A stretch of DNA of 64,000 bases from Nitrospirota bacterium (GCA_027623995.1 JAQBUF010000006.1:2895-66894); one strand, 5' to 3'; shown: positions 8,630-56,658, counted from the stretch's first letter. Made by a program: numbers and translations. The notes: generated by a model from the letters alone, not told the origin.

Positions 8630-10462
8630 ATGGAGTCAGGAATGTCCTATCAGCCCATTGAAAATTACGGCCTCATCGGCAACATGCGAACGACGGCACT
8701 CGTGGGCATGAATGGGTCCATCGATTGGTTTTGCTTCCCACACTTTGACTCTCCCAGTATCTTTGCCGCTATTTTGGATGAGAACAAGGGCGGGCGATTT
8801 CAGATCATGCCTGTCAACTCGAACGCCAAACATAAACAGTTTTATTGGCCGGACACCAATGTCCTGGTCACACGATTTCTTTCATCTCAGGGCGTGGGGC
8901 AAATCATTGATTTCATGCCCGTGGGCCTCAAAGAAACAGACGTCGGCTATCATGGGATCATTCGCCGCGTGCAGGCGATACGTGGAAATCTAAAATTCAA
9001 ACTCGAATGCTCTCCCGCGTTTAACTATGCCCGCGATCAACACACGACCACCCTCACATCAGATGGCGTGCGATTCGACGCCAACGGGTTAAGCCTTCGC
9101 CTAGGGGCAACCATCCCCTTGCAACAAGACGGGACAGGAGTGGTGGCGGAGTTTGAATTACACGAGGGACACGAGCTGAGCTTTGCGCTCCAAGAAGTCG
9201 AGCAGTATAGCGACTGCTGTGTGGCCGTCGCCCAAGACCAGGCCGAGGACCTGTTCCACCAAACCGTGGAATATTGGCGTCGGTGGTTGTCGAAGTGTAC
9301 GTATCGAGGGCGTTGGAGAGAAATGGTGCAGCGTTCCGCACTCACACTCAAACTGCTCACATTTGAACCTACAGGCGCCATCGTGGCTGCACCAACCTGT
9401 AGTCTTCCCGAAGGCATTGGCGGGGCTCGCAATTGGGACTACCGGTACACCTGGATTCGTGATGCCGCCTTCACCTTATATGGGTTGCTCCGCATTGGCT
9501 TCACGACCGAAGCGGAAAAATTCATGCATTTCCTTGAAGCGCGATGTCATGAATTGAAACCTGATGGCTCACTCCAAATCATGTATGGCATCGATGGTCG
9601 CCACGAACTTCCTGAAACCACCTTGGACCATCTTGAGGGGTATCGACAATCTAAACCGGTTCGGGTGGGTAACGGCGCCTATGACCAGCTGCAACTGGAT
9701 ATCTACGGCGAACTGCTTGATTCCGTCTACCTCTACAACAAATACGGCTCGCCCATTTCCTATGATTTATGGAAACATTTACGTCGACTCATCAATTGGG
9801 TCTGCGACAATTGGCATAGGCCGGACGAAGGCGTGTGGGAAGTGCGTGGAGGACAACAACATTTTCTCTACTCCAAACTTATGTGCTGGGTCGCCCTGGA
9901 TCGAGGATTGCGGTTGGCGGATAAACGTTCGTTCCCCGCCGATCGAGATCGTTGGCTCAAAATCCGGGATACGATTTACGAAGAGATTATGGAAAAAGGG
10001 TGGAGCGAGAGTCGCCAGGCGTTTGTCCAACGCTATGGAAGTGAATCGCTAGACGCCGCCAACCTCATGATGCCGCTCGTCTTCTTCGTCTCACCCACCG
10101 ACCCGCGTATGCTCAAGACGTTGGACGCCATTAATCAGCCACCGGAACAAGGCGGACTCGTCGCCAATGCCTTGGTGTATCGATATAACGTGAACGAAAC
10201 GAAAGATGGGCTGGATGGCGAAGAAGGCTCATTTAACATTTGCACGTTTTGGCTGGTCGAAGCCCTCACCAGAGCAGGCCGGACCGACGAAGCACGGCTT
10301 ATGTTTGAACAAATGCTCGGATACGCCAACCACCTTGGCCTCTACGCCGAAGAAACCGGCCACCACGGCGAAGCCCTCGGCAACTTCCCCCAAGCCTTTA
10401 CCCATCTTGCCTTAATTAGCGCGGCGTTCAACTTAGACAGGGCTTTAGGAACACGCGGGTAA
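8630..10462 (+). CDS. Glycoside hydrolase family 15 (trehalase/glucoamylase-like)
   Basis: '[16 protein letters not shown]...GSIDWFC.P.FDSPSIF', '[13 protein letters not shown]', 'DEGVWEVRG', '[13 protein letters not shown]'. Confidence 0.93.
10364..10462 (+). repeat. GH15 3' end, copy 1 (attL-like)
   Basis: First 44 bp (10364-10407) are identical to 13095-13138. The remaining 55 bp are recoded almost entirely synonymously. Confidence 0.9.
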
Positions 10463-10554
10463 ACGCACATCGAGCCCTCTAACCTTCCCCCTCAAATCAA
10501 AGTTTCCACACTAGAAAAATTAGACCGACGACCATGGTGACCATAATAGGCATG

Positions 10555-10638
10555 GGCCTGTTGAATATTTCATGTCCGTGACTCATAGATGCTCCAGATC
10601 AGACGAGCAGCATCAGTGTGAGGAAATGTTCAAAAAAG
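10555..10638. repeat. MITE-like repeat, truncated copy D (tail plus one TIR only)
   Basis: GGCCTGTTGAATATTTC...CATCAGTGTGAGGAAATGTTCAAAAAAG aligns with 12392-12475. Confidence 0.75.
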
Positions 10639-10779
10639 CATGCCCTTGTATAATGCAAGGAAGGGTTGTCGCCCAACTCACACGAGCAGTCTCCTGTCTG
10701 AAGAGAGCATCGCCCACGCAGGAAAAAAACTGTCCCCTCAAGGTAGTGTAAATCTCGGCATGATAGACCGTTTTCCCTG

Positions 10780-10903
10780 TGGGACTCAGCCCGTGACTCA
10801 GCGCAGGTCATCATTCCTCCTTAGTTAATGGAACAGTCATGATAACCAGTTACACAGTTAACTTGACAGGACCGGGAAGTTACGCATCGACAAGGAATTT
10901 CAC
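10780..10903 (-). pseudogene. DUF5615 (PIN-like toxin) remnant; 3' limit approximate
   Basis: GTG overlapping the DUF433 stop (GTGA) reads MKFLVDA*LP, the DUF5615 N-terminus MKFLVDAQLP with CAA>TAA at 10880-10882. It degenerates thereafter. Confidence 0.65.
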
Positions 10904-11139
10904 CCCACCACCGGCTCAATTCGTTGAACACGCGCAAGCCGCGCCGCAAACGCACAGACGGCTTGAAGATCGGCCTCTTCCAAGTCCGGGTAGTCGGCTA
11001 AGATTTGCTTCTTCGACATGCCGCTGCTCATGAGTTCCAATAACCAATCCACCGGATACCGGAGCCCACGGATGCAGGGTTTGCCGTGACAAATCTGAGG
11101 ATCAATGGTGATGCGGGTTAAGAGCTGTGCACTAGGCAT
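10900..11139 (-). CDS. DUF433 family antitoxin
   Basis: 'RITIDPQICHGKPCIRGLRYPV...LELMSSGMS..QILADYPDLEEADLQA'. Confidence 0.92.
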   Translation of the reverse strand: MPSAQLLTRITIDPQICHGKPCIRGLRYPVDWLLELMSSGMSKKQILADYPDLEEADLQAVCAFAARLARVQRIEPVVG

Positions 11140-11620
11140 GGTTCAAGAATATCCCACTTCCACGACCCTGAAAAGAAGGATGAGACAAATGGCTTCAAGG
11201 GGATACCCCAACTAGGGCGGCCCAGGTGGTGAATCAGGCCTTGGTTGCAATAGAGCTGGAGAAGGCTACGGCCAAGACACTTATTGCGCGGATCGAAAAG
11301 GCAGAGAAATTTTCTACATCCAGGGTGTTGCCCTTGCAGGCGCGAGGTCTCTTCGCCCCCTGATCCAATCACGATGGCTCAGAACATCACGGAGTTACTC
11401 CTGAATTGCATCGAAGGGCTCAGGCAATCTTCGCCAAAGAGTCTGATTTGTAAAGACGACTCAGCCGTATCAAACGCGGATAGACACCCAAGACATACCA
11501 CTTTTTGGCAATCGGGATAGAGAGGGCATGCCTACCACCACACAATACTCATGCTTACCCACAATCCATACGGCTTAAAAAGGGAAGCGGCCCCATTGCC
11601 GTCCCCTTTGCCAAAGTTTC

Positions 11621-11956
11621 CTACCGCCCGGCCCGAGCGGCGACGGCAAAATGATAGAAATACCGATCGAGACCGACCAAGTCGCTCCCGTACAGATGGC
11701 CTCCGAACATCGCGTCACAGAGGAACTCCCGCACACGGGTCAGTTCTTTGAGGCGACCCTTCCAGCGAGGATCGCCGATCGTCAGGTCAAGCAGCTCCAG
11801 CGCGCGGTGGAAGGCTTTTTCGCAGGCCTGAGAGTCTTTCTCTCTCCAACGAGCGATACGTCCCACCTCGCTTCCGACATTGCCTAACTGTTCCGCTAAC
11901 GGCATCGTGTGCCATCTCCCGGCCGCCAGTCCTGCATGTTGAGCGGATATTGCCAT
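11621..11956 (-). CDS. Conserved hypothetical helical protein, partner of DUF5674
   Basis: 'RWHTMPLAEQLGNVGSEVGR...RALELLDLTI.DPRW..RLKELTRVRE'. Translationally coupled (TAATG) to DUF5674. Confidence 0.75.
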   Translation of the reverse strand: MAISAQHAGLAAGRWHTMPLAEQLGNVGSEVGRIARWREKDSQACEKAFHRALELLDLTIGDPRWKGRLKELTRVREFLCDAMFGGHLYGSDLVGLDRYFYHFAVAARAGR

Positions 11957-12303
11957 TAGTCCGCCACCAATTGACAGACGATGCGTATGATCGCCTGGCG
12001 AATATCGGGACGTTCGACCGAACGAGAACGATTTCCGCCGGCAGGTCGCACGTTGATCATCGAATCAAATTCGATCCAGTCCTCAGGGGGGTTGTCCGGA
12101 TAGAGGTTGATCCCCCAGAGATTGGCTTGCTGTGAACCCTGTTCCAAGAGCATGGCTTCTTCGTCGGAATGGAGTTCACCCCCAATCGCCATAATCTCCT
12201 GTTCGACGTCCACGACGGCCTTAACCATATCCCCAAACTGGTGCGTGGCCATTTCTCGTATGAACGCTTTGGCTATGGGAATTCGAATGATACTGATTTC
12301 CAT
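11956..12303 (-). CDS. DUF5674 family protein
   Basis: 'MVKAVVDVEQEIMAIGGELHSDEEAMLLEQGSQQANLWGINLYP...IEFDSMINVRP..GNRSR.VE'. Confidence 0.8.
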   Translation of the reverse strand: MEISIIRIPIAKAFIREMATHQFGDMVKAVVDVEQEIMAIGGELHSDEEAMLLEQGSQQANLWGINLYPDNPPEDWIEFDSMINVRPAGGNRSRSVERPDIRQAIIRIVCQLVAD

Positions 12304-12391
12304 GATGCGCCCTGACTCCATGTAAAGGGTCGAAGCCAATACGATTACGAATTTGGCATGGGACTGTCAACCGGATGAGATTATCCTGTGT

Positions 12392-12651
12392 GGCCTGTTG
12401 AATATTTCCTGTTCATTGGCCATAGATGCTTCAGAACGGCAACCGACATCAGTGAGAGGGAATGTTCAAAAAAGTTCGCCCAGCAAGGCCGCAGCCGTTT
12501 TGACGCGCGGAGCGTACTCCCGTACGTGAGCGCGAGCGGTGCAAAGCGCCAAGTCTGCGAGCCCGAAGGTCAGGCAAAATGCCGACTATGCCTGTGCGAG
12601 CCGCCTCGGCAAAGCCAGGGAACGCCGCTGGCGGCTTTTTTCAACATTCCC
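12392..12651. repeat. Nitrospira-type MITE-like repeat, copy B
   Basis: High similarity to the reverse complement of 1046-1309, with the same TIRs. Confidence 0.85.
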
Positions 12652-13094
12652 CTGTGTGGTCTTCATGAGGGACACGCACGGCGGTTGTTTTCTTGTAAGC
12701 TGGTGTGGGTGGTGCCGGTGCTCAATCAGATGTAAGGCGCACTGGAACTAAAGAACGCGCTGACGAAAACGTTTATTGGGCGGGTCGAGAAAGGGAAGAA
12801 TTTTCCTGATGAATTTTCGCGCCCCCCAGCAGCAACATTTGATTGGGCTGGGAATACTCTGACGATGGACGTGAGACCGTAAGTGGTTTAAAGGGGAAAT
12901 CCGAAAGCTCACACATCTCGATGTTGATCGAGTTGCCAGATAATCTTTGGATGCCTGGCAATGCATTGAGTTTCGACCTATTCTTTCGCAAAAACCAATT
13001 CCACTCTTCGTGCAGTTTAGACCGCCAGAGTACGGTGCGGTGCGGTGCGCTCCATCCAATCGAAAACAGGATCCAACAAAACTACAAATTCCAG

Positions 13095-13193
13095 CACGGC
13101 GAAGCCCTCGGCAACTTCCCCCAAGCCTTTACCCATCTGGCGCTCATCAGCGCCGCGTTTAACCTCGATAGAGCACTAGGGTCTCGCGGCTAA
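13095..13193 (+). repeat. GH15 3' end, copy 2 (attR-like displaced end)
   Basis: Encodes [32 protein letters not shown], versus ...GTRG* in the gene. Confidence 0.9.
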
Positions 13194-13270
13194 CCCTGGG
13201 GGCGGACCTTCCCCTTGTTTAGTCCCGAGCTCTCCTTTGCCTCTAAAGAGAAGGGGTTGGTTCACAGGGT

Positions 13271-14923
13271 TTAAAAACGCGAACTCGTTAACGTCACATC
13301 CGCATCAGTCCAAGCCATCTTAAATTGCTCTTGAACCTTTTGCGCCTCTTGGGTTTTACCTTGGGCTTCCAAACTTTGAACTAACCCAAACAATGACCAG
13401 CCGCTTTGAGGATGATGCACGAGATCTTCTCGATAGACACGTTCAGCCTCAGGTGCTCGACCTGCTTCAAGCAACACCGCACCTAAGACTTGCCGCGAAG
13501 GCAGATACCAATCCTTGGGTTCGGTATAACTCAGTTGACCCTCCAATTGAATGGCATGCTCCAGACGACCAATAGCATCGTCATAATGTTCACGCGAGAC
13601 CGCAAGTTCGCCTGCAAGAATCTCTGCACCAATCTGGAGCAGTTGCGCGACGGAATTGTTCCCAAAAATTCGCTGCTCAAGCAGCACAGGATCGTTGGCA
13701 ATATTTCGCAGCGCCACTAATTCTTTTGCCGCCTGCGACTGATACCCGTTTCGAAGGTAGGCTAAACTCCTCGCATAGCGCCACACCCCCTTGGGATACA
13801 ATAACGTCGGAGGGGCCTCTTGCAAAATGTCATCCCATTGCCCAAAGAGTGCTTTCGTATACAGCGGGATCATCGAGAAATGTTGAAGCGTCGCGCCTAA
13901 CGCGGGATCCTGCAACAACTTCGACTCCACATGCGCCGCGGTATCCATGGCTGATTCCATTGAGACAGTTTTCATTCCCAGCTTCGTCGCCGCAGCCCAA
14001 AGAAAATGGTGATTGTGTGGCACATAGGCCAGAGGATAAATCCCTTCGGTGTGCGAATGGTTCAAATACCCAGTGTCCACCTTCGTCGCTCGTTGATTAG
14101 CCACGACTGCATCACGATAGCGTCCCACACGAATATAGACATGCCCCGGCATATGCACGAGATGACCTGCCCCAGGTACTAGATCACCCAATCGATCCGC
14201 ACTGGGGATCGCACGTTCTGGATTAGGGGAAGCTTCCACCGCATGGATATATAAATGATTCGCTAAGGGATGATTGGAATCTGAGTCCAAGGCGTGTTCC
14301 AACACTGTGAGAATTTCTGGAGTCCAGGCATAAGGCTTACCGTCTTGTGCCCAATAATTCCAGGGATGTAAGTCCATCAGCGCCGCACCAAGAAGGCTAC
14401 CGACCGTGGAATCTTGTGGGAACTGCATGTGAACACCACGCATGCCTTGGGCATAGGCTTTATCTAAGCCACTTCGATCTGCCATGACTTCTGGGGAGTA
14501 TCGAAGCCGTAACGCATTGATGAGGGCTTGTTCTTTGGGAGCTGCTAAACTGGATAATTGAAGGGCGTTTCTGATTGCTTCATAGGCAACAGGCACCATG
14601 GCATGATCCATCGGCGCATTGATATTCGGTCCAAGCACCAACGCTTGGCCCCAATAACACATGGCACAAGCGGGATCGAGCCGCGCGGCCTCAACAAATG
14701 ATCTGTGCGCCTCCGCATGATTGAAGGCATATGCGAGAATCATCCCTTGATCAAAATATTTTTGCGCAATAGGGTTTTGCGTGGTGATGGGATAGTGAAA
14801 ATTTCCAAGGTTCTCGAAGAGTGGAACTTCTGCCTGAGCGTCTTCGTGAGGTTTGACAGACGCACACCCCAGAACCAACGCGCACAATATTCCGATCATC
14901 CCCCATCGCAAGTTCATCACCAC
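13271..14923 (-). CDS. His-rich TPR lipoprotein
   Basis: Lipobox LGC; 'HYPITT..P.AQKYFDQG..LAYAFNHAEA.RSF', 'NHPLANHLYIHAVE', 'HLVHMPGHVY'. Confidence 0.85.
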   Translation of the reverse strand: MVMNLRWGMIGILCALVLGCASVKPHEDAQAEVPLFENLGNFHYPITTQNPIAQKYFDQGMILAYAFNHAEAHRSFVEAARLDPACAMCYWGQALVLGPNINAPMDHAMVPVAYEAIRNALQLSSLAAPKEQALINALRLRYSPEVMADRSGLDKAYAQGMRGVHMQFPQDSTVGSLLGAALMDLHPWNYWAQDGKPYAWTPEILTVLEHALDSDSNHPLANHLYIHAVEASPNPERAIPSADRLGDLVPGAGHLVHMPGHVYIRVGRYRDAVVANQRATKVDTGYLNHSHTEGIYPLAYVPHNHHFLWAAATKLGMKTVSMESAMDTAAHVESKLLQDPALGATLQHFSMIPLYTKALFGQWDDILQEAPPTLLYPKGVWRYARSLAYLRNGYQSQAAKELVALRNIANDPVLLEQRIFGNNSVAQLLQIGAEILAGELAVSREHYDDAIGRLEHAIQLEGQLSYTEPKDWYLPSRQVLGAVLLEAGRAPEAERVYREDLVHHPQSGWSLFGLVQSLEAQGKTQEAQKVQEQFKMAWTDADVTLTSSRF

Positions 14924-27611: not shown

Positions 27612-29126
27612 TCAGGATAACGGATACGGAATTTTTATGGAAACCTGGGTTCCTTCACCGACCATTCCTTTGATACTGACTTCCCCGCCCAAGGGCAACA
27701 CTCGTTCACGAATCCCGAGTAACCCTAAGGAATGGGAATTGAAAATTTTGTGGTTCTCTATACCTTCACCGTTATCGTTCACTTCCAGCAATACATGCCC
27801 ATTCCCTTGAAAAAATCGAACATCCACATGAGTGGCTTTGGCATGTCGAGCCACATTGGTTAACGCTTCTTGCAACACCCGAAAACAGGTGAGAGAACGT
27901 TCTGAATCTAACTCGCCTTTCTCCTGCTCCATCACTAAGTCACATTGAATTCCTGTGCGATCTTGAAATTCCTTTGTCTGCCACTCGATGGCCTCAGCAA
28001 GTCCAAACACATCCAAAACCTTGGGACGCAGCTCCAGACAGATTCGTTGGACCGTTTCCACCGTTTGATCAAGGAGATCGCTCATCGATTGAATTTTTTT
28101 ATGAAAGGTGTTCGAATCCCGAGAATCTTCATCTAAACACGAAAGATCCATTTTTAACGCGGTCAAAACTTGGCCTAGCTCATCATGGACTTCGCGCGCA
28201 ATGTTAGATTTCTCCTCTTCCCGGATGGACTGCAAGCGATGACTCAAGTCTCGCAATTCCCCACGGGAGACTCGTAAATGTTCTTCTACCTGTTTACGTT
28301 CAGTGATTTCCTTTTCCAAACCTTGGTGAGAGAGATGCAGCTTCACAAGCAAACGACGCTCCCTCTGCATAAAATAGACCGCAACTGATAGGAGCGATGC
28401 CATCAGCAATCCAAACATCAGGACGGCCATTGCCACAATCGACTGTTTGGGAATATCCAGATGTATCCACAATCCCAGGGAGATGGTCATCCCCCCAACA
28501 CCAACTAACACGGGCAGCCATGGTGGAGACCCGATTACTTTCTGTTTTTCGTTTTGCCAGGAAAAGGCGATCAATCCTATGGCCAGAATCCCAAATCCTC
28601 CAGGTTCATGCACAGCCATTCTGATAATCTGGCCCCACCCTTGTGTCGAATCCAGATCAATCAAGTGGGCAAATAACGCCACAGCGCCAAGGGCAAAAAT
28701 GAAAGCCCCCAACACTCCCGAGATCAGCGTGCCTTTGGCAGAGAGTTCATTGTTGGTGACCGCAAGGATCCCCATGCCCACAAGTAAAAAACTCAAAGCC
28801 GAATTGAGTGACAAACGGAAAGGATTCCCAAGCAGCTCCCATGGCACAACGAATGCCACAAAGGCCAATCCACCGAGAAGGCCTGTGAGAACCCCAACCA
28901 CTTTCGCTTCTTTCACCCTAAGAATATTTAAAAAAATTAACCCTAATCCACTCAATAGAAACCCAACCGCGCCCGTGATAGGCATAGGCACGAGAGAAGG
29001 ACGGATCTGAATGAGTGCAATATTATTCGTACCCCACGCGAACAACACAAACCCTCCCAGGATCATCAATACGACCCCACACAAAAGAGAAATTTTTGAA
29101 GAAGAAAAATTCATACTGTTTGCCAT
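27612..29126 (-). CDS. Membrane sensor histidine kinase (HisKA_3, UhpB/NarX-like)
   Basis: About 8 TM segments; 'IAREVHDELGQ.LT.LK', 'RVLQEALTNVARHA', 'DNGEG', 'GLLGIRER'. Confidence 0.9.
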   Translation of the reverse strand: MANSMNFSSSKISLLCGVVLMILGGFVLFAWGTNNIALIQIRPSLVPMPITGAVGFLLSGLGLIFLNILRVKEAKVVGVLTGLLGGLAFVAFVVPWELLGNPFRLSLNSALSFLLVGMGILAVTNNELSAKGTLISGVLGAFIFALGAVALFAHLIDLDSTQGWGQIIRMAVHEPGGFGILAIGLIAFSWQNEKQKVIGSPPWLPVLVGVGGMTISLGLWIHLDIPKQSIVAMAVLMFGLLMASLLSVAVYFMQRERRLLVKLHLSHQGLEKEITERKQVEEHLRVSRGELRDLSHRLQSIREEEKSNIAREVHDELGQVLTALKMDLSCLDEDSRDSNTFHKKIQSMSDLLDQTVETVQRICLELRPKVLDVFGLAEAIEWQTKEFQDRTGIQCDLVMEQEKGELDSERSLTCFRVLQEALTNVARHAKATHVDVRFFQGNGHVLLEVNDNGEGIENHKIFNSHSLGLLGIRERVLPLGGEVSIKGMVGEGTQVSIKIPYPLS

Positions 29127-44612: not shown

Positions 44613-45764
44613 TCAGTCTGAAAGGTAGAGGCTCCCATGATTCAACAGTGCTAAGATGAGGGAAAGATCGTCGCCGGATTCGGCGGATTGATCAGAACCA
44701 ATCTCTCTTTGAGCGCATAAAGTTTCGACCAAGTCCGCTTGGCTATGCGAACGACGAAAGCAACGACCATCCACGAACAACCAGATCTCTGCTCCCTGGT
44801 GCTGGAATGCAAAACGAGAGCCTTCGTTTCGAATAAGCACTCCACCACCTGAAAGGTGTGCTCGTAGATGATCGAGACTATACGTTTCCTGGGTTGGTTC
44901 TTCTTCACGATATTTAGGAATCGTGACCGAACGTCCAAACCACTCCGCAACCTTTTCTTTATCTTCCACGTATTGTCGTAAGATGTGGTGGGCGTTTTCC
45001 AATGCCTCGCGAGTAATCTGCCCGTGATGGGCTTGAGGGACAAGGTCGGGATCGGCATAGCGAATTTCTTCACTCAGGTCATTCGCAATAAAGTGAGAAT
45101 ATTCCCGCAACATGTCCCCATGAGACGGTGCGCGAAAGCCGACGGAACACGTCATGCAATCCTTGCCAACGGCAATCCCACTATGCCCAATGCGCGGAGG
45201 CACATACAGTAGATCTCCAGGCTCAAGAATCCAACGTTCTTCTGGCTCCCAATCGGTTAAGATCATTACCGGTGTATCAGGCCGACGTGGTGACTGGTCA
45301 TCAAACAACCCACCCACTTCCCATTGGCGTCGCCCACTTACCTGCACTAAGAACACATCATAATTATCAAAGTGTGGCCCGACTCCACCGCCATCACCAG
45401 CCAAGCTGATCATCAAATCATCAATGCGCCAGCTCGGGATAAAATTAAACTGATCAAGAAACTTCGCCGCCTCCGGCACCCAAAAATCCACCGCCTGTAC
45501 CAACAACGTCCAATGCGTCTCTGGTAACGCACCAAACGTCTCCTCAGTAAACGGCCCATGCGTAAGATCCCACTTCTCACTACTCCCATCATGCATAATC
45601 AGACGAGACTCGACATTCTCCTCACAAGCCAACCCCGCCAACTCATCCGCCGCAATAGGCGGCACACACCCTGGCAACGCATTGCGAATCAGCAACGGCT
45701 TCTTCTGCCAATACTCCGCCAAAAACTTTTCGACTGTCAGAGCACCGAGAGGTAGTGAATTCAT
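44613..45764 (-). CDS. roxA: JmjC/cupin-4 2OG oxygenase, YcfD/RoxA-like
   Basis: 'FLAEYWQKKPLLIR', 'WRIDDLMIS.A..GGGVGPHFDNYDVFL.Q..GRRQW', 'GDLLYVPP..GH.G', 'SVGFRAP'. Confidence 0.85.
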   Translation of the reverse strand: MNSLPLGALTVEKFLAEYWQKKPLLIRNALPGCVPPIAADELAGLACEENVESRLIMHDGSSEKWDLTHGPFTEETFGALPETHWTLLVQAVDFWVPEAAKFLDQFNFIPSWRIDDLMISLAGDGGGVGPHFDNYDVFLVQVSGRRQWEVGGLFDDQSPRRPDTPVMILTDWEPEERWILEPGDLLYVPPRIGHSGIAVGKDCMTCSVGFRAPSHGDMLREYSHFIANDLSEEIRYADPDLVPQAHHGQITREALENAHHILRQYVEDKEKVAEWFGRSVTIPKYREEEPTQETYSLDHLRAHLSGGGVLIRNEGSRFAFQHQGAEIWLFVDGRCFRRSHSQADLVETLCAQREIGSDQSAESGDDLSLILALLNHGSLYLSD

Positions 45765-52171: not shown

Positions 52172-52487
52172 GTTTTACCTATATCAAGCTTGATGCAGGA
52201 CTGTCTTTGTTCCAGTATATCAATGTCCATTGACCGCCATTATTGTGAGGCAAAACGGCAGAACCCTCTAGGAGGAAGACATGTTGACTTTCCTATAGGC
52301 CGTGCCCAACCCTTGCCCCATCTCCAGAATATCGAGAATTGAGACGCAAAACACATAAAATTGAAATATTCGGCATTGGCAGCCACAAACTTAAGAAAAT
52401 GAATGGGCGGAGTAAGGGTGCCATTCTTGCCCTCACCTTTACTCATGGCTTGGTTTGTCACCCAACCCTCACCCTACCTTTCCCATC

Positions 52488-52676
52488 TCCAACCTTCTGT
52501 ATGCGCGAAACCAAATTCTTTGGTTTAATGTGCAGTTATGCAGGCATAATATCGTCGCCATAGACTTCCCAGTTGACCTTCTCCAAGGCCCTTCGGATGT
52601 TCTCGCGCTCGACTTCGCGTATTTCATCTTCAGTCATGATTTGGGTCTGGCCTGGGCTCAGTGATTTCATTCTTTT
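52488..52676 (-). repeat. Sigma54-activator 3' end, copy 3 (most decayed)
   Basis: Translates [62 protein letters not shown]. Confidence 0.85.
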
Positions 52677-52863
52677 AGCTAATGAGGGCCAAGAGGAAAG
52701 TGTCATATCCTGCAAAAGCACATTTGCAAGGAGGGACCAACCACACCACCGGCACAGAAAAATGCGTTGGCCATGAGAATTTATTAAAAATTGGCCAGGA
52801 CTAGACTGGGTTGACTTGACGAGCAACAAGAGGCCAAGCCTCAGAACCGTTAGCGTTGGCCAA

Positions 52864-53232
52864 TCAACGGCTACGATGAACTTTTGCTGATTCCTCTTTC
52901 AAGACCTTCGCGATAAGCGGTTGCACGGGAGGAATATCTTCTTTGGCGGTTTTCCACAGCACCTGATAGTTTACCCCGAAGTATTCATGGATGAGTTTGT
53001 CCCGCATTCCAGCCATGAGTTTCCAGGGAACATTCGCATGTCGCTTCTTGACGGATGGTGGGATCTTCTTGGCCGCTTCGCCGATAATCTCGAAGGCTCT
53101 GACCACGGCATACATCGTCTTCTGATCTCGTGAAAATTGGCTCCACGTCATACCTGAAATAAATTGCGAGATGTTCTGTGAAGCTTCCAGGATATCGGCC
53201 AGGTAATCAAGAAATTCGCGTTTGCCTGTCAC
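52864..53232 (-). CDS. HepT-like RNase toxin (DUF86/HEPN)
   Basis: 'YLADILEA', 'AVVRAFEIIGEAAK', 'PWK.MAGMRDKLIHEYFGVN...LW'. Confidence 0.92.
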   Translation of the reverse strand: MTGKREFLDYLADILEASQNISQFISGMTWSQFSRDQKTMYAVVRAFEIIGEAAKKIPPSVKKRHANVPWKLMAGMRDKLIHEYFGVNYQVLWKTAKEDIPPVQPLIAKVLKEESAKVHRSR

Positions 53233-53549
53233 AAGCCCACAACCTCACTAAGAATTCTCTGGCCAATCAGAGGTTTGAGCGCCGACCTCATCACCAGGTC
53301 TACTTTGACGCCCAAGAGACTGGATAAATGGCTTTCCAGGTCAATGAACTTAAAGAGGCTTGGCTCCTCAGCAAAATCCACAAGCAAGTCGAGATCGCTG
53401 CCCCGCCGGGGATTTCCTTGGACATACGAGCCGAACACTCCGAGGTATCGGACATGAAACGTCTTTTTCAGCATGGGCATCTGGCCACGCAGGATATCAC
53501 GGTATCGCTGTAGTTTTTTCTGTGCTCCTGCCTCAGAAATCTTTGCCAT
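53229..53549 (-). CDS. MntA-like nucleotidyltransferase antitoxin
   Basis: 'LGVFGSYVQG......SDLDLLVDF', 'LE..L..LLG.KVDLV'; overlaps the DUF86 start. Confidence 0.92.
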   Translation of the reverse strand: MAKISEAGAQKKLQRYRDILRGQMPMLKKTFHVRYLGVFGSYVQGNPRRGSDLDLLVDFAEEPSLFKFIDLESHLSSLLGVKVDLVMRSALKPLIGQRILSEVVGL

Positions 53550-53753
53550 AGCCCAACACTCCTCGAGAGACTGCTTCACTTCAAACCGTACCCACAAAGA
53601 CTACGTTCCATGCCCGATTCTGTCAATATTTTGCATCAGCTAGGGACAACTCAGTTGACCAGTACCATGAAAAAAATGGGGACAGGCAAAAAGGAATGAT
53701 GAGGTTGGGCCTTCCACTACCATAATTTTCATTTATCTTGATTCATTGAATTT

Positions 53754-53960
53754 TCACGCAGGCTTCTCCAACCCCATCTTCTGCATGCGAGAGACCAAGG
53801 TCGTTGGTTTGACACGGAGTAACGCTGCAGCGCCGTCGTCGCCGTAGACTTTCCAGTTGACCTTCTCTAGGGCTCTTCGGATGTTTTCGCGTTCGACGTC
53901 GCGCATTTCGTCTTCGGTCATGATTTCTGTCTGAGCGGGGTTCAGTGATTTTTTCTTTTT
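53754..53960 (-). repeat. Sigma54-activator 3' end, copy 2
   Basis: Open frame [68 protein letters not shown], mostly synonymously diverged from 55018-55224. Confidence 0.92.
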
Positions 53961-53998
53961 AACTAAGAAAAGGACTCGCAGCCACAAATATTATCTGA

Positions 53999-54259
53999 TT
54001 ATGGAAGAGGTTCTATCTTTTCCAAGGGATCAAGACTCTTTGCTTTTTCCCAGTCTGAGAGAAGTTCCTTTTTATGGAGAGAAGCCCATTCAGTGACAAG
54101 ACCGAGGGCACGGGCCGGCAGGCGGCCTGAGAATACGGCGAGCGTATTCACATCGATCAGGGCTTCATGCTCTGCATACTCAGCATGAAAGTGCGGTGGG
54201 TTGTGATCATCGAAATACATTTTGATCACAATCCCGTAAAAGCGGCAGATTTCAGGCAT
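53999..54259 (-). CDS. DUF4160 family protein (TA-associated)
   Basis: 'MPEICRFYGIVIKMYFDDHNPPHFHAEY....ALI......G.LP.RAL.LV.EWA'. Confidence 0.92.
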   Translation of the reverse strand: MPEICRFYGIVIKMYFDDHNPPHFHAEYAEHEALIDVNTLAVFSGRLPARALGLVTEWASLHKKELLSDWEKAKSLDPLEKIEPLP

Positions 54260-54533
54260 TCACGCCTGTCTTCAAGGTAGGAAAAACATCCTCGGGTGAT
54301 TTTCCCGTCAATCGCAGGTAGACGGAATCCTGACACAAATCAAGATCTTCACCCCATATAAGTTCCCCATGGGATCCAATTCGGACCTCCTTGAAAAACT
54401 CCTCATTTTCCCAGGCTTTGAAGACCCCTCTTCCCGCGAGGTCGGAGAAGTCGACCTCGCCCGTTGTTCCATCATCATAGCGAAGCCATAGGCGAAAATT
54501 TTGAAGTGGTTTTATCTCTATGAGTTTTGGCAT
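54252..54533 (-). CDS. DUF2442 family protein (TA-associated)
   Basis: 'IKPL..FRLWLRYDDG..GEVDF..L...GVF..W....F..V.I...G.LIW....DLC.D..Y'. Confidence 0.9.
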   Translation of the reverse strand: MPKLIEIKPLQNFRLWLRYDDGTTGEVDFSDLAGRGVFKAWENEEFFKEVRIGSHGELIWGEDLDLCQDSVYLRLTGKSPEDVFPTLKTGVNA

Positions 54534-54780
54534 ATTTTGGCTCCAATCGTTGGATGATAGCACGCATGTACTATGGCTTCAATTCAGGCGTATAATTCCC
54601 GTTATTCTCCGCCAAAAAAAATGGTGCGGACTTATCCATTCCCCCTTCGCATCCTTAAACAATGATTGAGGCATTTTTGGGATCTTACCGAAACCATGGA
54701 TTTGTCCCTACGGCCATCCAATTCTGGATTCATGGAATTGCCTGTCCATGCCTCCCCCTCCTGCAAGTATTCTTTCTTGG

Positions 54781-54868
54781 TGTAGCTGCACGATCTTATC
54801 GTGCCTTCTTCCCATGCACCAAGGGCTCATGACGCCCGGAAGAGGCAGCATGAGATGCTGCAGCTACA
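54781..54868. repeat. GTAG-type REP doublet, second copy
   Basis: TGTAGCTGCACGAT-CTT-ATCGTGCC ... GGCAGCAT-GAG-ATGCTGCAGCTACA; homologous to 1822-1912. Confidence 0.75.
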
Positions 54869-55017
54869 CAAGAGTCGTTGGCAACGTGTTTACCTCGAAA
54901 GGAGAGGTGCAATCACCTATGAAGGCGAGTACAGAATTATTGGCAACTGATACTCTGCTACCAGAGCCATAAATTCTGTATGATCCCATCTTTTGGTTTT
55001 TAGCTCACCCTCAATTC

Positions 55018-56658
55018 TCACCCCGGCTTTTCCAATCCCATTTTTTGCATGCGCGACACCAACGTTGTTGGTTTCACCCGAAGTAAAGCTGCTGCGCCGT
55101 CGTCGCCGTAGACTTTCCAGCTCACCTTCTCCAGTGCTCTTCGGATGTTCTCGCGTTCGACCTCGCGCATTTCATCTTCGGTCATAATTTCTGCTTGGCC
55201 GGGGTTCAGCGATTTTTTTCTTTTCAATATCGATGGGCGATCTGTTTCAGACATTTTGGGTAATCCAAATTGCAGGTTGGTGCAGCGGGAGGTGATCACT
55301 GCACGCTCGATGACGTTTTGTAATTCACGGATGTTGCCGGGCCAGTCATATTTTTGCAGATCGATGACATGGGCTTGGGTGAGCCTTGGTGGATTGGAGC
55401 AATTCATTTTCTTGCCTGTGAGTTCCAAAAAGTTGGCGGCTAAGAGTGGAATGTCTTCTTTGCGCTCGCGTAATGGCGCGACCTCTAACGGGAACACGTT
55501 TAATCGGTAGTACAGGTCTTGGCGAAACCGTCCGGCTTCGACTTCTTTTTTGAGATCGCGATTCGTTGCGGCGACGATGCGCACATCGACTTGCCTGGTT
55601 CGTTCATCCCCTACCCGCTCGTATTGGTTCTCTTGCAGGACCCGTAAGAGTTTACTTTGGAGATCTAGCGGAATTTCTCCGACTTCATCGAGAAAGAGCG
55701 TTCCACCATCTGCGGCTTCAAACCTTCCGGCTCGATCTCTGAGCGCTCCGGTAAACGCGCCTTTGACATGCCCGAAGAATTCGCTTTCGTACAATTCGCG
55801 TGGAATCGACGCGCAGTTGACTTTGATGAGCGGTTTATTTTTTCGATTGCTACGTTTGTGAATTTCTCTGGCCACGAGTTCTTTGCCTGTGCCGGATTCC
55901 CCGAGAATCAACACATTCGCATCAGTGGGCGCGACCAATTCAATTTGTCGCAACACCGCATGCAGTGCGGGGCTTTGGCCAACGATATCTCCGAAGGCTT
56001 GCGCATCTAGGACCTCTTCACGCAAAAACGTGTTTTCTAATTTCAGTTGCTCTTGCAGGCGTTCAATTTCATCGAACGCTTTCGCATTAGTGATAGCCAC
56101 AGCCACATGATCGGCAATCATTCGTAACCACGTTGGGGCATCTTCGGTAATGGGCGCGCGGGTAAAGACGGCTAGCACGCCTAAGATCTCTCCTTGGTAC
56201 ATAATGGGTTGTCCATGGAATCCGTGGATGCCTTCTTGCTTGGCCCAATCCTGTCTTGCGATCCAAGTCTTGTCCTCTGTCATTTCAGGTATGATCACGG
56301 ATTCTCCGGTTCCACCAATACGGCCAACCTTATAAGAACCAATCGGAAACCGGCGAAAATGCCCATTCAATCCATTCCATTGTTCATCGGGATTGACCAC
56401 TGAATTGCCGGCACTGGCGACCAAGTGCAAACAGGCTGTTTGATCGGGACAGTCCTCACGCATTCGACAATTCCCACACACATCACCCGGTCGCTTTAAC
56501 CAAATGCGGACCAAGGCAACCTCATCACGCTGAGCCATCCGGTTCACGATCATTTTAAGTAATTCATCGAGCGAGCGTTGCTGGGCGATATCCAACACCA
56601 GACATTTAAACGCTGCGAATTCAGTCGGACAGATTTTCTCTGGTTCCATCTTTTCCAT
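55018..56658 (-). CDS. Sigma54-dependent activator (Cys-rich GAF, AAA+, Fis HTH; FhlA-like)
   Basis: '[11 protein letters not shown]', 'GAFTGA', 'LFLDEVGE', '[10 protein letters not shown]'; GAF domain with CX2CX5CX5C. Confidence 0.93.

Follow-up and report, generated by a model that had tools for sequence, protein, structure and literature searches.

The 64,000-nt window examined here (the whole stretch of DNA analysed, JAQBUF010000006.1:2895-66894 of the Nitrospirota bacterium assembly GCA_027623995.1) contains a GH15 trehalase-like gene whose last 103 nt recur downstream of a small islet carrying a DUF433 antitoxin-type gene and a DUF5674 gene pair. The islet is probably one of many recombinase-free cassette insertions at gene 3' ends in this Nitrospira genome, the genus being evident from the names that homologous sequences carry. 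On balance, we favour an origin by insertion-duplication, carried out by host homologous recombination, and persistence of the insert through addiction. The evidence comes from the pattern of divergence between the two GH15 ends, from the recurrence of the same architecture at unrelated genes of the same genome, and from the reassortment of gene ends and cargo between relatives.

Two copies of the GH15 gene end

The host gene (positions 8630-10462 of the window, + strand) encodes an intact 610-aa protein with matches to PF00723 (E = 5e-82) and TREH_N. Its TreH1-like match scores under the curated cutoff, and orthologs are present in 33 of 41 relatives. Repeat search and alignment identified a 103-nt repeat pair at 10360-10462 and 13091-13193, with 83% identity and a spacing of 2731 nt, and a whole-genome BLAST search with the gene end as query returned the second copy with E = 3e-23. 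The differences between the copies are unevenly distributed, with 0/44 in an identical core (10364-10407 on the left and 13095-13138 on the right, both + strand) versus 17/55 in the final stretch (Fisher p = 1.7e-5). Codon position 3 accounts for 14 of the 18 differences (p = 1.4e-4), the encoded peptides differ by a single T to S change in the C-terminal [T/S]RG, and both copies end in a TAA stop. A preliminary description of this DNA had reported the recurrence of the GH15 end, its coordinates, the 44-nt identity and the single T-to-S change, and repeat search and alignment bore out all of these. The same description had called the last 55 bp "recoded", which fits the 17 nucleotide changes with one amino-acid change found here.

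Codon usage, comparison with the closest relative and a terminator-like hairpin each give a modest signal as to which copy is native. Because these agree, we conclude with moderate confidence that the downstream copy (13091-13193, + strand, stop codon kept) is the displaced resident end, and that the present working end of the gene, the last 55 nt at 10408-10462 (+ strand), is xenologous and was imported. The closest relative is G002, with 91% protein identity in GH15. Within the last 55 nt, identity to the G002 ortholog is 78% (43/55) for the displaced copy and 62% (34/55) for the gene-attached end (p = 0.095), the gene average being 81%. There are 13 differing sites at which G002 matches one of the copies, and it sides with the displaced copy at 11 of these and with the gene-attached end at 2 (p = 0.02). 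The gene-attached end uses TTA at 3/4 Leu codons versus 5/61 in the remainder of the gene (p = 0.005), and the Leu codons of the displaced copy are the CTC and CTG usual for GH15. Directly after the displaced end lies a terminator-like hairpin with a T-rich tail (13198-13214, + strand), which is likely to be the original GH15 terminator. The agreement with G002, the Leu codon usage and the position of the hairpin behind the displaced copy together support the earlier proposal that the gene has received a replacement end.

Compared with its G002 ortholog in 90-nt steps along the gene, GH15 varies in identity from 72 to 91%, which indicates that recombination has made a mosaic of this core gene. 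Homologous exchange is evidently frequent in this group.

The preliminary description had recommended looking for an empty site in related genomes, and one was found in G002. There the locus consists of carbonic anhydrase, GH15, a convergent TPR gene and a methyltransferase, with one GH15 end only. This empty site is not perfectly clean, as the GH15-TPR spacer holds an extra UDG gene. The UDG-superfamily gene of G002 (L037 9382-9969) has an ortholog in the present genome on another contig (C52:3648-4226, 73% protein identity), and the GH15-TPR spacer is therefore a variable spot. Duplication of the GH15 end was seen in none of the 41 relatives and 115 family genomes searched.

Recurrence of duplicated gene ends and reassortment of their cargo

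When the 3.1-Mb assembly was compared with itself, 16 gene ends emerged that have local repeats in low copy number, about 20 pairs in all. In each pair, one copy forms the end of a long gene, stop codon included, and the other lies 0.5-13 kb downstream as a fragment; 16 gene ends is a lower bound. Some sites have three or four copies, the repeats span 57-360 nt, and the location of the identical blocks differs between sites. The host genes are unrelated to one another, and include those for a purF-like amidotransferase, an FtsX/MacB permease, an SNF symporter, LspA, a photolyase, a class I fumarase, a DDAH-like enzyme, NuoN, G6PD, GH15 and a sigma54 activator, together with FtsH-like and DnaE-like proteins, both assigned by eye. 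The cargo consists mostly of toxin-antitoxin (TA) pairs. Recognisable TA cargo comprises PIN+FitA, PIN, ParE with an antitoxin, HicAB (twice) and HEPN with a nucleotidyltransferase (NTase), antitoxin-type cargo comprises BrnA/CopG-type antitoxins and a HigA-like HTH protein, and other cargo comprises AAA_14+DUF4143 ATPases (twice) and a Schlafen/AlbA_2 protein. The genome has 13 matches to the tyrosine-recombinase family (PF00589) and one to the serine-recombinase family (PF00239), and none of these lies in or beside any islet. K-mer sharing between the repeat boundaries was not above random, and no common boundary motif was found.

The preliminary description had noticed a similar pattern at the sigma54-activator gene within the window, and had suggested that the mechanism recurs in this lineage. 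The pattern proved real, with three copies of the gene end, and the recurrence extends to 16 or more gene ends in one genome. The three copies of the activator 3' end lie at 55013-55229, 53749-53965 and 52465-52681 (span 52465-55229, - strand), and separate a DhiT/DhiA-like (DUF4160/DUF2442) pair from a HepT/MntA-like pair. The middle copy contains an intact 77-aa open reading frame (ORF) with its own start codon (53754-53987, - strand) that covers the C-terminal stretch of the activator and could be expressed as a stand-alone peptide.

The copies at these sites differ in the manner of coding sequences. In 20 gene-copy/fragment pairs, 327 of 510 differences fall at codon position 3 (p = 2e-45), and the codon differences comprise 270 synonymous versus 157 nonsynonymous changes. 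This excess of third-position and synonymous change indicates that the copies accumulated most of their differences as working gene ends, each in its own lineage. Neutral decay of a relic after in-place duplication was considered and rejected, as it would not give the third-position bias seen. An outgroup polarity test at 12 other sites showed no consistent direction; in most cases the two copies were more alike than either was to G002 or to a second relative, G006. A universal rule that the fragment is the native copy was dropped, as these 12 sites show no common polarity. Either the donors were mostly close relatives, or the fragments may have been repeatedly overwritten by functional alleles of cassette-free strains.

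Comparison with relatives revealed reassortment in both directions. The same cargo occurs behind different genes: in the complete genome G022, the DUF5674 unit directly follows a Pup-ligase gene and is set among three copies of the end of that gene. At the DNA level this cassette resembles that of the GH15 islet only across the two ORFs (window 11613-12312). A DUF433/DUF5615 pair in G006 is flanked by two copies of another gene end, that of a dienelactone-hydrolase (DLH) gene. The same gene ends also carry different cargo. The end of a gene encoding a 314-aa protein has HigA-like cargo in the present genome (G000) and MazEF in G006, and the dnaE-like gene end has BrnA-type cargo in G000 and PIN/VapB in G006. 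At ftsX, G002 has an additional zeta-toxin cassette proximal to an older PIN cassette, and the sigma54-activator site has no insert in either G002 or G006. The duplicated-end architecture is thus also present in complete genomes of relatives (G022, G006 and G002). The DUF433 gene of the GH15 islet has 84-90% nucleotide identity to intact DUF433/DUF5615 pairs of another genus, while protein identity to the GH15 of that genus is only about 78%. This discrepancy between cargo and host gene indicates recent horizontal transfer.

Three further observations concern displaced ends and mobile segments elsewhere in the assembly. The displaced ftsX-end fragments of the present genome (C27:34488-34555) and G006 (L090:2393-2462) are 95.7% identical over 70 nt, compared with 82% for the surrounding gene and cassette, which suggests that the fragment is either under constraint or recently exchanged. 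Contig C56 (5934 nt) has a 98-nt exact terminal overlap, reflecting either a circular molecule or an assembly artefact. It carries a gene for a 73-aa antitoxin-like protein and a RelE-like N-terminus. The reading frame of the latter continues into 468 nt that are 89% identical to the 3' end of an ABC-2 permease gene. That gene is intact on C16, with its matching end at 45245-45712, and the C56 copy is a displaced end away from its gene. Contig C70 has a 27.6-kb segment between 89-nt direct repeats (64-151 and 27659-27747) with a tyrosine recombinase at one edge (28189-28671). From its organisation this segment looks like a classical integrative element, unlike the recombinase-free islets.

Contents of the GH15 islet

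The cargo listed in the preliminary description, namely a DUF433/DUF5615 remnant, a DUF5674 pair and miniature inverted-repeat transposable elements (MITEs), was confirmed by family and repeat searches. The DUF433 antitoxin-type gene (10900-11139, - strand, 79 aa; PF04255, E = 7e-25) is an orphan. An adjacent intact antitoxin and toxin, as expected of a DUF433/DUF5615 module, were not found: the antitoxin is intact, and translation and homology show that the DUF5615 (PIN-like) toxin gene is reduced to its first codons (10874-10899, - strand), the remainder being lost or interrupted by stops (frame 3, KFLVDA*LPGPVKLTV*...). Homology to an intact DUF433/DUF5615 pair on metagenome contig L088 stops at 10874. 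In place of most of the toxin gene is debris of MITE-like and other repeated elements (10552-10873), consisting of a partial copy of a genome-wide MITE family (10552-10646), a 171-nt element that is repeated in G006, G005 and G004 (10647-10817), and a 55-70-nt element found in several of the searched genomes (10806-10874).

The DUF5674 gene (11956-12303, - strand) encodes 115 aa from its conserved start (PF18924, E = 1e-36), and is translationally coupled to a gene for a 111-aa partner (11621-11956, - strand) that always adjoins DUF5674 in other Nitrospira. Together they form a conserved, horizontally mobile two-gene unit with 60-78% identity across genera; DUF5674 is single copy in this genome, and 7 of 41 relatives have one. 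The 111-aa partner has no sequence match in Pfam, NCBIfam, PADLOC or PDB, and sequence searches of NCBIfam, PADLOC and PDB assigned the pair to no defence, toxin-antitoxin or structure family. We consider it a candidate new addiction or defence pair.

The right-hand part of the islet contains a full MITE-like element of about 260 nt (12392-12654) with up to about 85 matches in the genome, followed by filler (12655-13090) whose ORFs have no family match and which has no match in the 115 family genomes. Many MITE-like copies occur in this genome, and several of them disrupt cassette genes. MITEs were considered as the vehicle of the cargo and rejected, as the islet MITEs have no relation to the repeats found around DUF433/DUF5615 pairs of other genera and look like later insertions. 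The stretches 10463-10551, 11212-11620 and 12655-13090 gave no informative match in the 115 family genomes. A protein-family search of the islet ORFs identified no recombinase family, no tRNA or tmRNA is present at the islet, and there is no Rfam match in 10000-13600.

Mechanism of insertion and relation to known systems

In the insertion-duplication that we favour, DNA of another Nitrospira lineage would have brought selfish cargo together with the last ~100 nt of the GH15 gene of that lineage. Host homologous recombination, presumably of the RecA type, would have crossed over in the 44-nt stretch that is identical between the two GH15 versions. GH15 would then finish with the foreign, synonymously recoded 55 nt and stay intact, and the resident end with its terminator would be pushed 2.7 kb downstream, giving the order of gene with imported end, cargo, and core with resident end. 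The incoming DNA may have been a circle (Campbell-type insertion), or a linear donor piece of repeat-cassette-repeat with both crossovers inside the repeats; the product would be identical. Homologs of ComEC and DprA, which are DNA uptake genes, are present and lend weak support to an uptake route. Inserts between direct repeats would easily be lost by repeat-by-repeat recombination, and the survivors would be those whose loss is punished. We infer that the cargo is mostly TA pairs because inserts persist where loss is punished. Later decay at the GH15 islet would have truncated the DUF5615 toxin gene by repeated elements, with MITEs landing in the islet.

Several points weigh against this scenario. 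Homologous recombination alone does not account for the way in which a cassette came by a new gene end in the first place; for that step, either a rare illegitimate event or true duplication of a long target is required. The sole recognisable TA pair of the islet has lost its toxin and the DUF5674 pair is only putatively addictive, so that retention by addiction is hypothetical here. The polarity of the two GH15 ends derives from small numbers (43/55 versus 34/55 to G002, p = 0.095), and G006 agrees with each of the two copies at 7 sites. No donor lineage of the imported 55 nt was found among the genomes and contig collections searched, including the 115 family genomes, and exact searches with the 44-nt core and with a 27-nt piece of the imported end each gave zero matches in public metagenome and genome contig collections. 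The preliminary description had recommended looking in other genomes for an integrase beside the 44-bp core, and the core itself is absent from these collections. Finally, both islet junctions derive from a metagenome assembly (110 contigs, 3.1 Mb); a contig from another sample reproduces 10554-11744 at 97.7% identity, and stops short of both junctions.

The main rival to this reading, and also a complement to it, is strict insertion with long target duplication (ILTD). Here a target of ~100 nt would be copied at insertion, through a long staggered break or an illegitimate event, and the initially identical copies would diverge when one was later overwritten by the allele of another strain. 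ILTD has been described in the literature (Nobusato et al. 2000, Gene 259:99; Furuta et al. 2010, PMC2853133), and is documented for restriction-modification genes, where the duplication often spans stop codons and no mobility gene is involved (PMC2853133). The GH15 islet shares much with it: a small selfish or addictive unit without a mobility gene, long (>30 bp) direct repeats of variable length that are single at the empty site of a relative, repeats that often span the stop codon, and a target gene that stays intact. The repeats here exceed ~30 bp (103 nt, 83%), G002 has a single copy, and the insert has no mobility gene. Strict ILTD would also suit the finding that at most sites the copies are more alike (80-97%) than either is to the G002 or G006 ortholog, without general polarity. 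In addition, cassettes must somehow gain new gene ends, and the mosaic of GH15 against G002 (72-91%) implies that allelic replacement is common.

However, near-identical repeats equally close to the empty site were not found (17/55 differ, with 78% versus 62% identity to G002), and the copies differ synonymously, like orthologs of separate lineages. A second event would be required for the contrast of 0/44 with 17/55 and for the strong third-position bias. The atypical codon usage is on the gene-attached end and not on the relic, and a mechanism for such long duplications is not known. The cargo is not restriction-modification genes but DUF433 with a DUF5615 remnant and the DUF5674 pair, and there are 16 or more sites in one 3.1-Mb genome, sometimes stacked 3-4 deep. 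A search of one literature library found no description of toxin-antitoxin cassettes between duplicated gene ends, the nearest being ILTD of restriction-modification genes. We regard strict ILTD as an unlikely explanation of the GH15 islet when taken alone.

Less probable still is site-specific integration, either by a tyrosine or serine recombinase acting in trans on a satellite resembling a cis-mobilizable element (CIME), or by an integrase later deleted from the islet. Some integrative elements insert in the 3' ends of protein-coding genes and supply a replacement end, as the lambdoid phage 21 and e14 do in icd. The GH15 islet has a similar layout, with an element-borne alternative 3' end, the resident end on the far side, and an identical 44-nt core at both attL/attR-like junctions. 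The genome does encode 13 tyrosine-recombinase and one serine-recombinase matches, the islet is visibly decayed, and 436 nt beside its right junction are unexplained. However, none of the 14 matches lies in or adjoins an islet at any of the 16 gene ends, no recombinase is carried by the islet itself and none is plausible in trans, and no tRNA or tmRNA is involved. Instead of a defined att core and a constant target, there are 16 or more unrelated targets with long homology of variable length (57-360 nt) and no common boundary motif. The same cargo lies at different genes and is flanked by the ends of those genes, with DUF5674 at GH15 here and at Pup-ligase in G022, and DUF433 at DLH in G006. 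A sequence-specific recombinase in trans is thus very unlikely, and the integrase in trans or decayed island suggested in the preliminary description is not upheld.

A local rearrangement, whether a tandem GH15 copy that decayed until 103 nt were left and took in unrelated genes, or a chimera assembled from two strains, could draw on the 110-contig metagenome assembly and on the variable GH15-TPR spacer of relatives (UDG in G002, on C52 here), but is highly improbable: homology begins abruptly at 13091 with no trace of GH15 upstream, the fragment keeps its frame and stop with almost all differences synonymous, a chimera joined through the 44-nt repeat would still need a real molecule with the islet abutting the core, and the same architecture is found in the complete genomes G022, G006 and G002. 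No relative searched has a tandem GH15 copy, which, with the abrupt homology, excludes the decayed paralog that the preliminary description had named as the finding that would overturn its interpretation.

Two other systems can be compared with the insertion-duplication that we favour. Campbell-type insertion-duplication is used for insertion-duplication mutagenesis in transformable bacteria. It has the same topology as the GH15 islet, with a target segment duplicated around the insert, a crossover in a region of identity and dependence on host recombination. It differs in being a laboratory method and not a known natural route for cassettes, and in that the homology at GH15 is the gene end of a diverged relative. 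Sedentary chromosomal integron arrays are stabilised by toxin-antitoxin cassettes (PMC13108822). The islets resemble these arrays in forming ordered stacks of small cassettes with a repeated site between them, many of the cassettes being TA pairs thought to prevent loss. They differ in that there is no IntI and no attC or attI, the repeated "site" is the end of the upstream host gene, and one to three cassettes are found at each of many scattered loci. No integrase lies near the GH15 islet and its repeats are host gene ends; for attC, no search with a dedicated model was made.

The movement of chromosomal TA modules has long been unclear, as these modules are patchy, mobile and abundant, and usually without a recombinase. 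The present genome provides a dense and internally replicated footprint of such movement: at least 16 gene ends are involved, some arrays are stacked, a given gene end can hold other cargo in sister species, and a given cargo can sit behind other gene ends. This footprint points to host homologous recombination and post-segregational punishment as sufficient for spread and retention. If true, this would extend a mechanism proposed only for restriction-modification genes to toxin-antitoxin cargo, and would explain the dominance of addiction-type genes in small islets behind core genes. Recombinase-free spread of TA cassettes is also testable here, through the many comparable instances in one genome. 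For annotation, the results carry a warning that short "pseudogene" copies of gene ends mark places of insertion, and that a core gene can finish in codons of foreign origin.

More tentatively, and with rather less confidence than in the recombination scenario itself, we propose that conserved gene 3' ends may serve as portable "homology handles" of an integrase-free, integron-like cassette system. Addiction modules, and possibly defence genes, may travel with a captured piece of a housekeeping gene and insert by host recombination wherever an ortholog exists, with serial stacking and occasional swaps of handles. The displaced ends may stay gene-like because they recombine again and again with functional alleles, or may have a function of their own. 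If this proposal is true, it would describe a widespread and so far undescribed route of horizontal transfer for toxin-antitoxin systems, of which the genus Nitrospira, with 16 or more loci per genome, would be a dense natural example.

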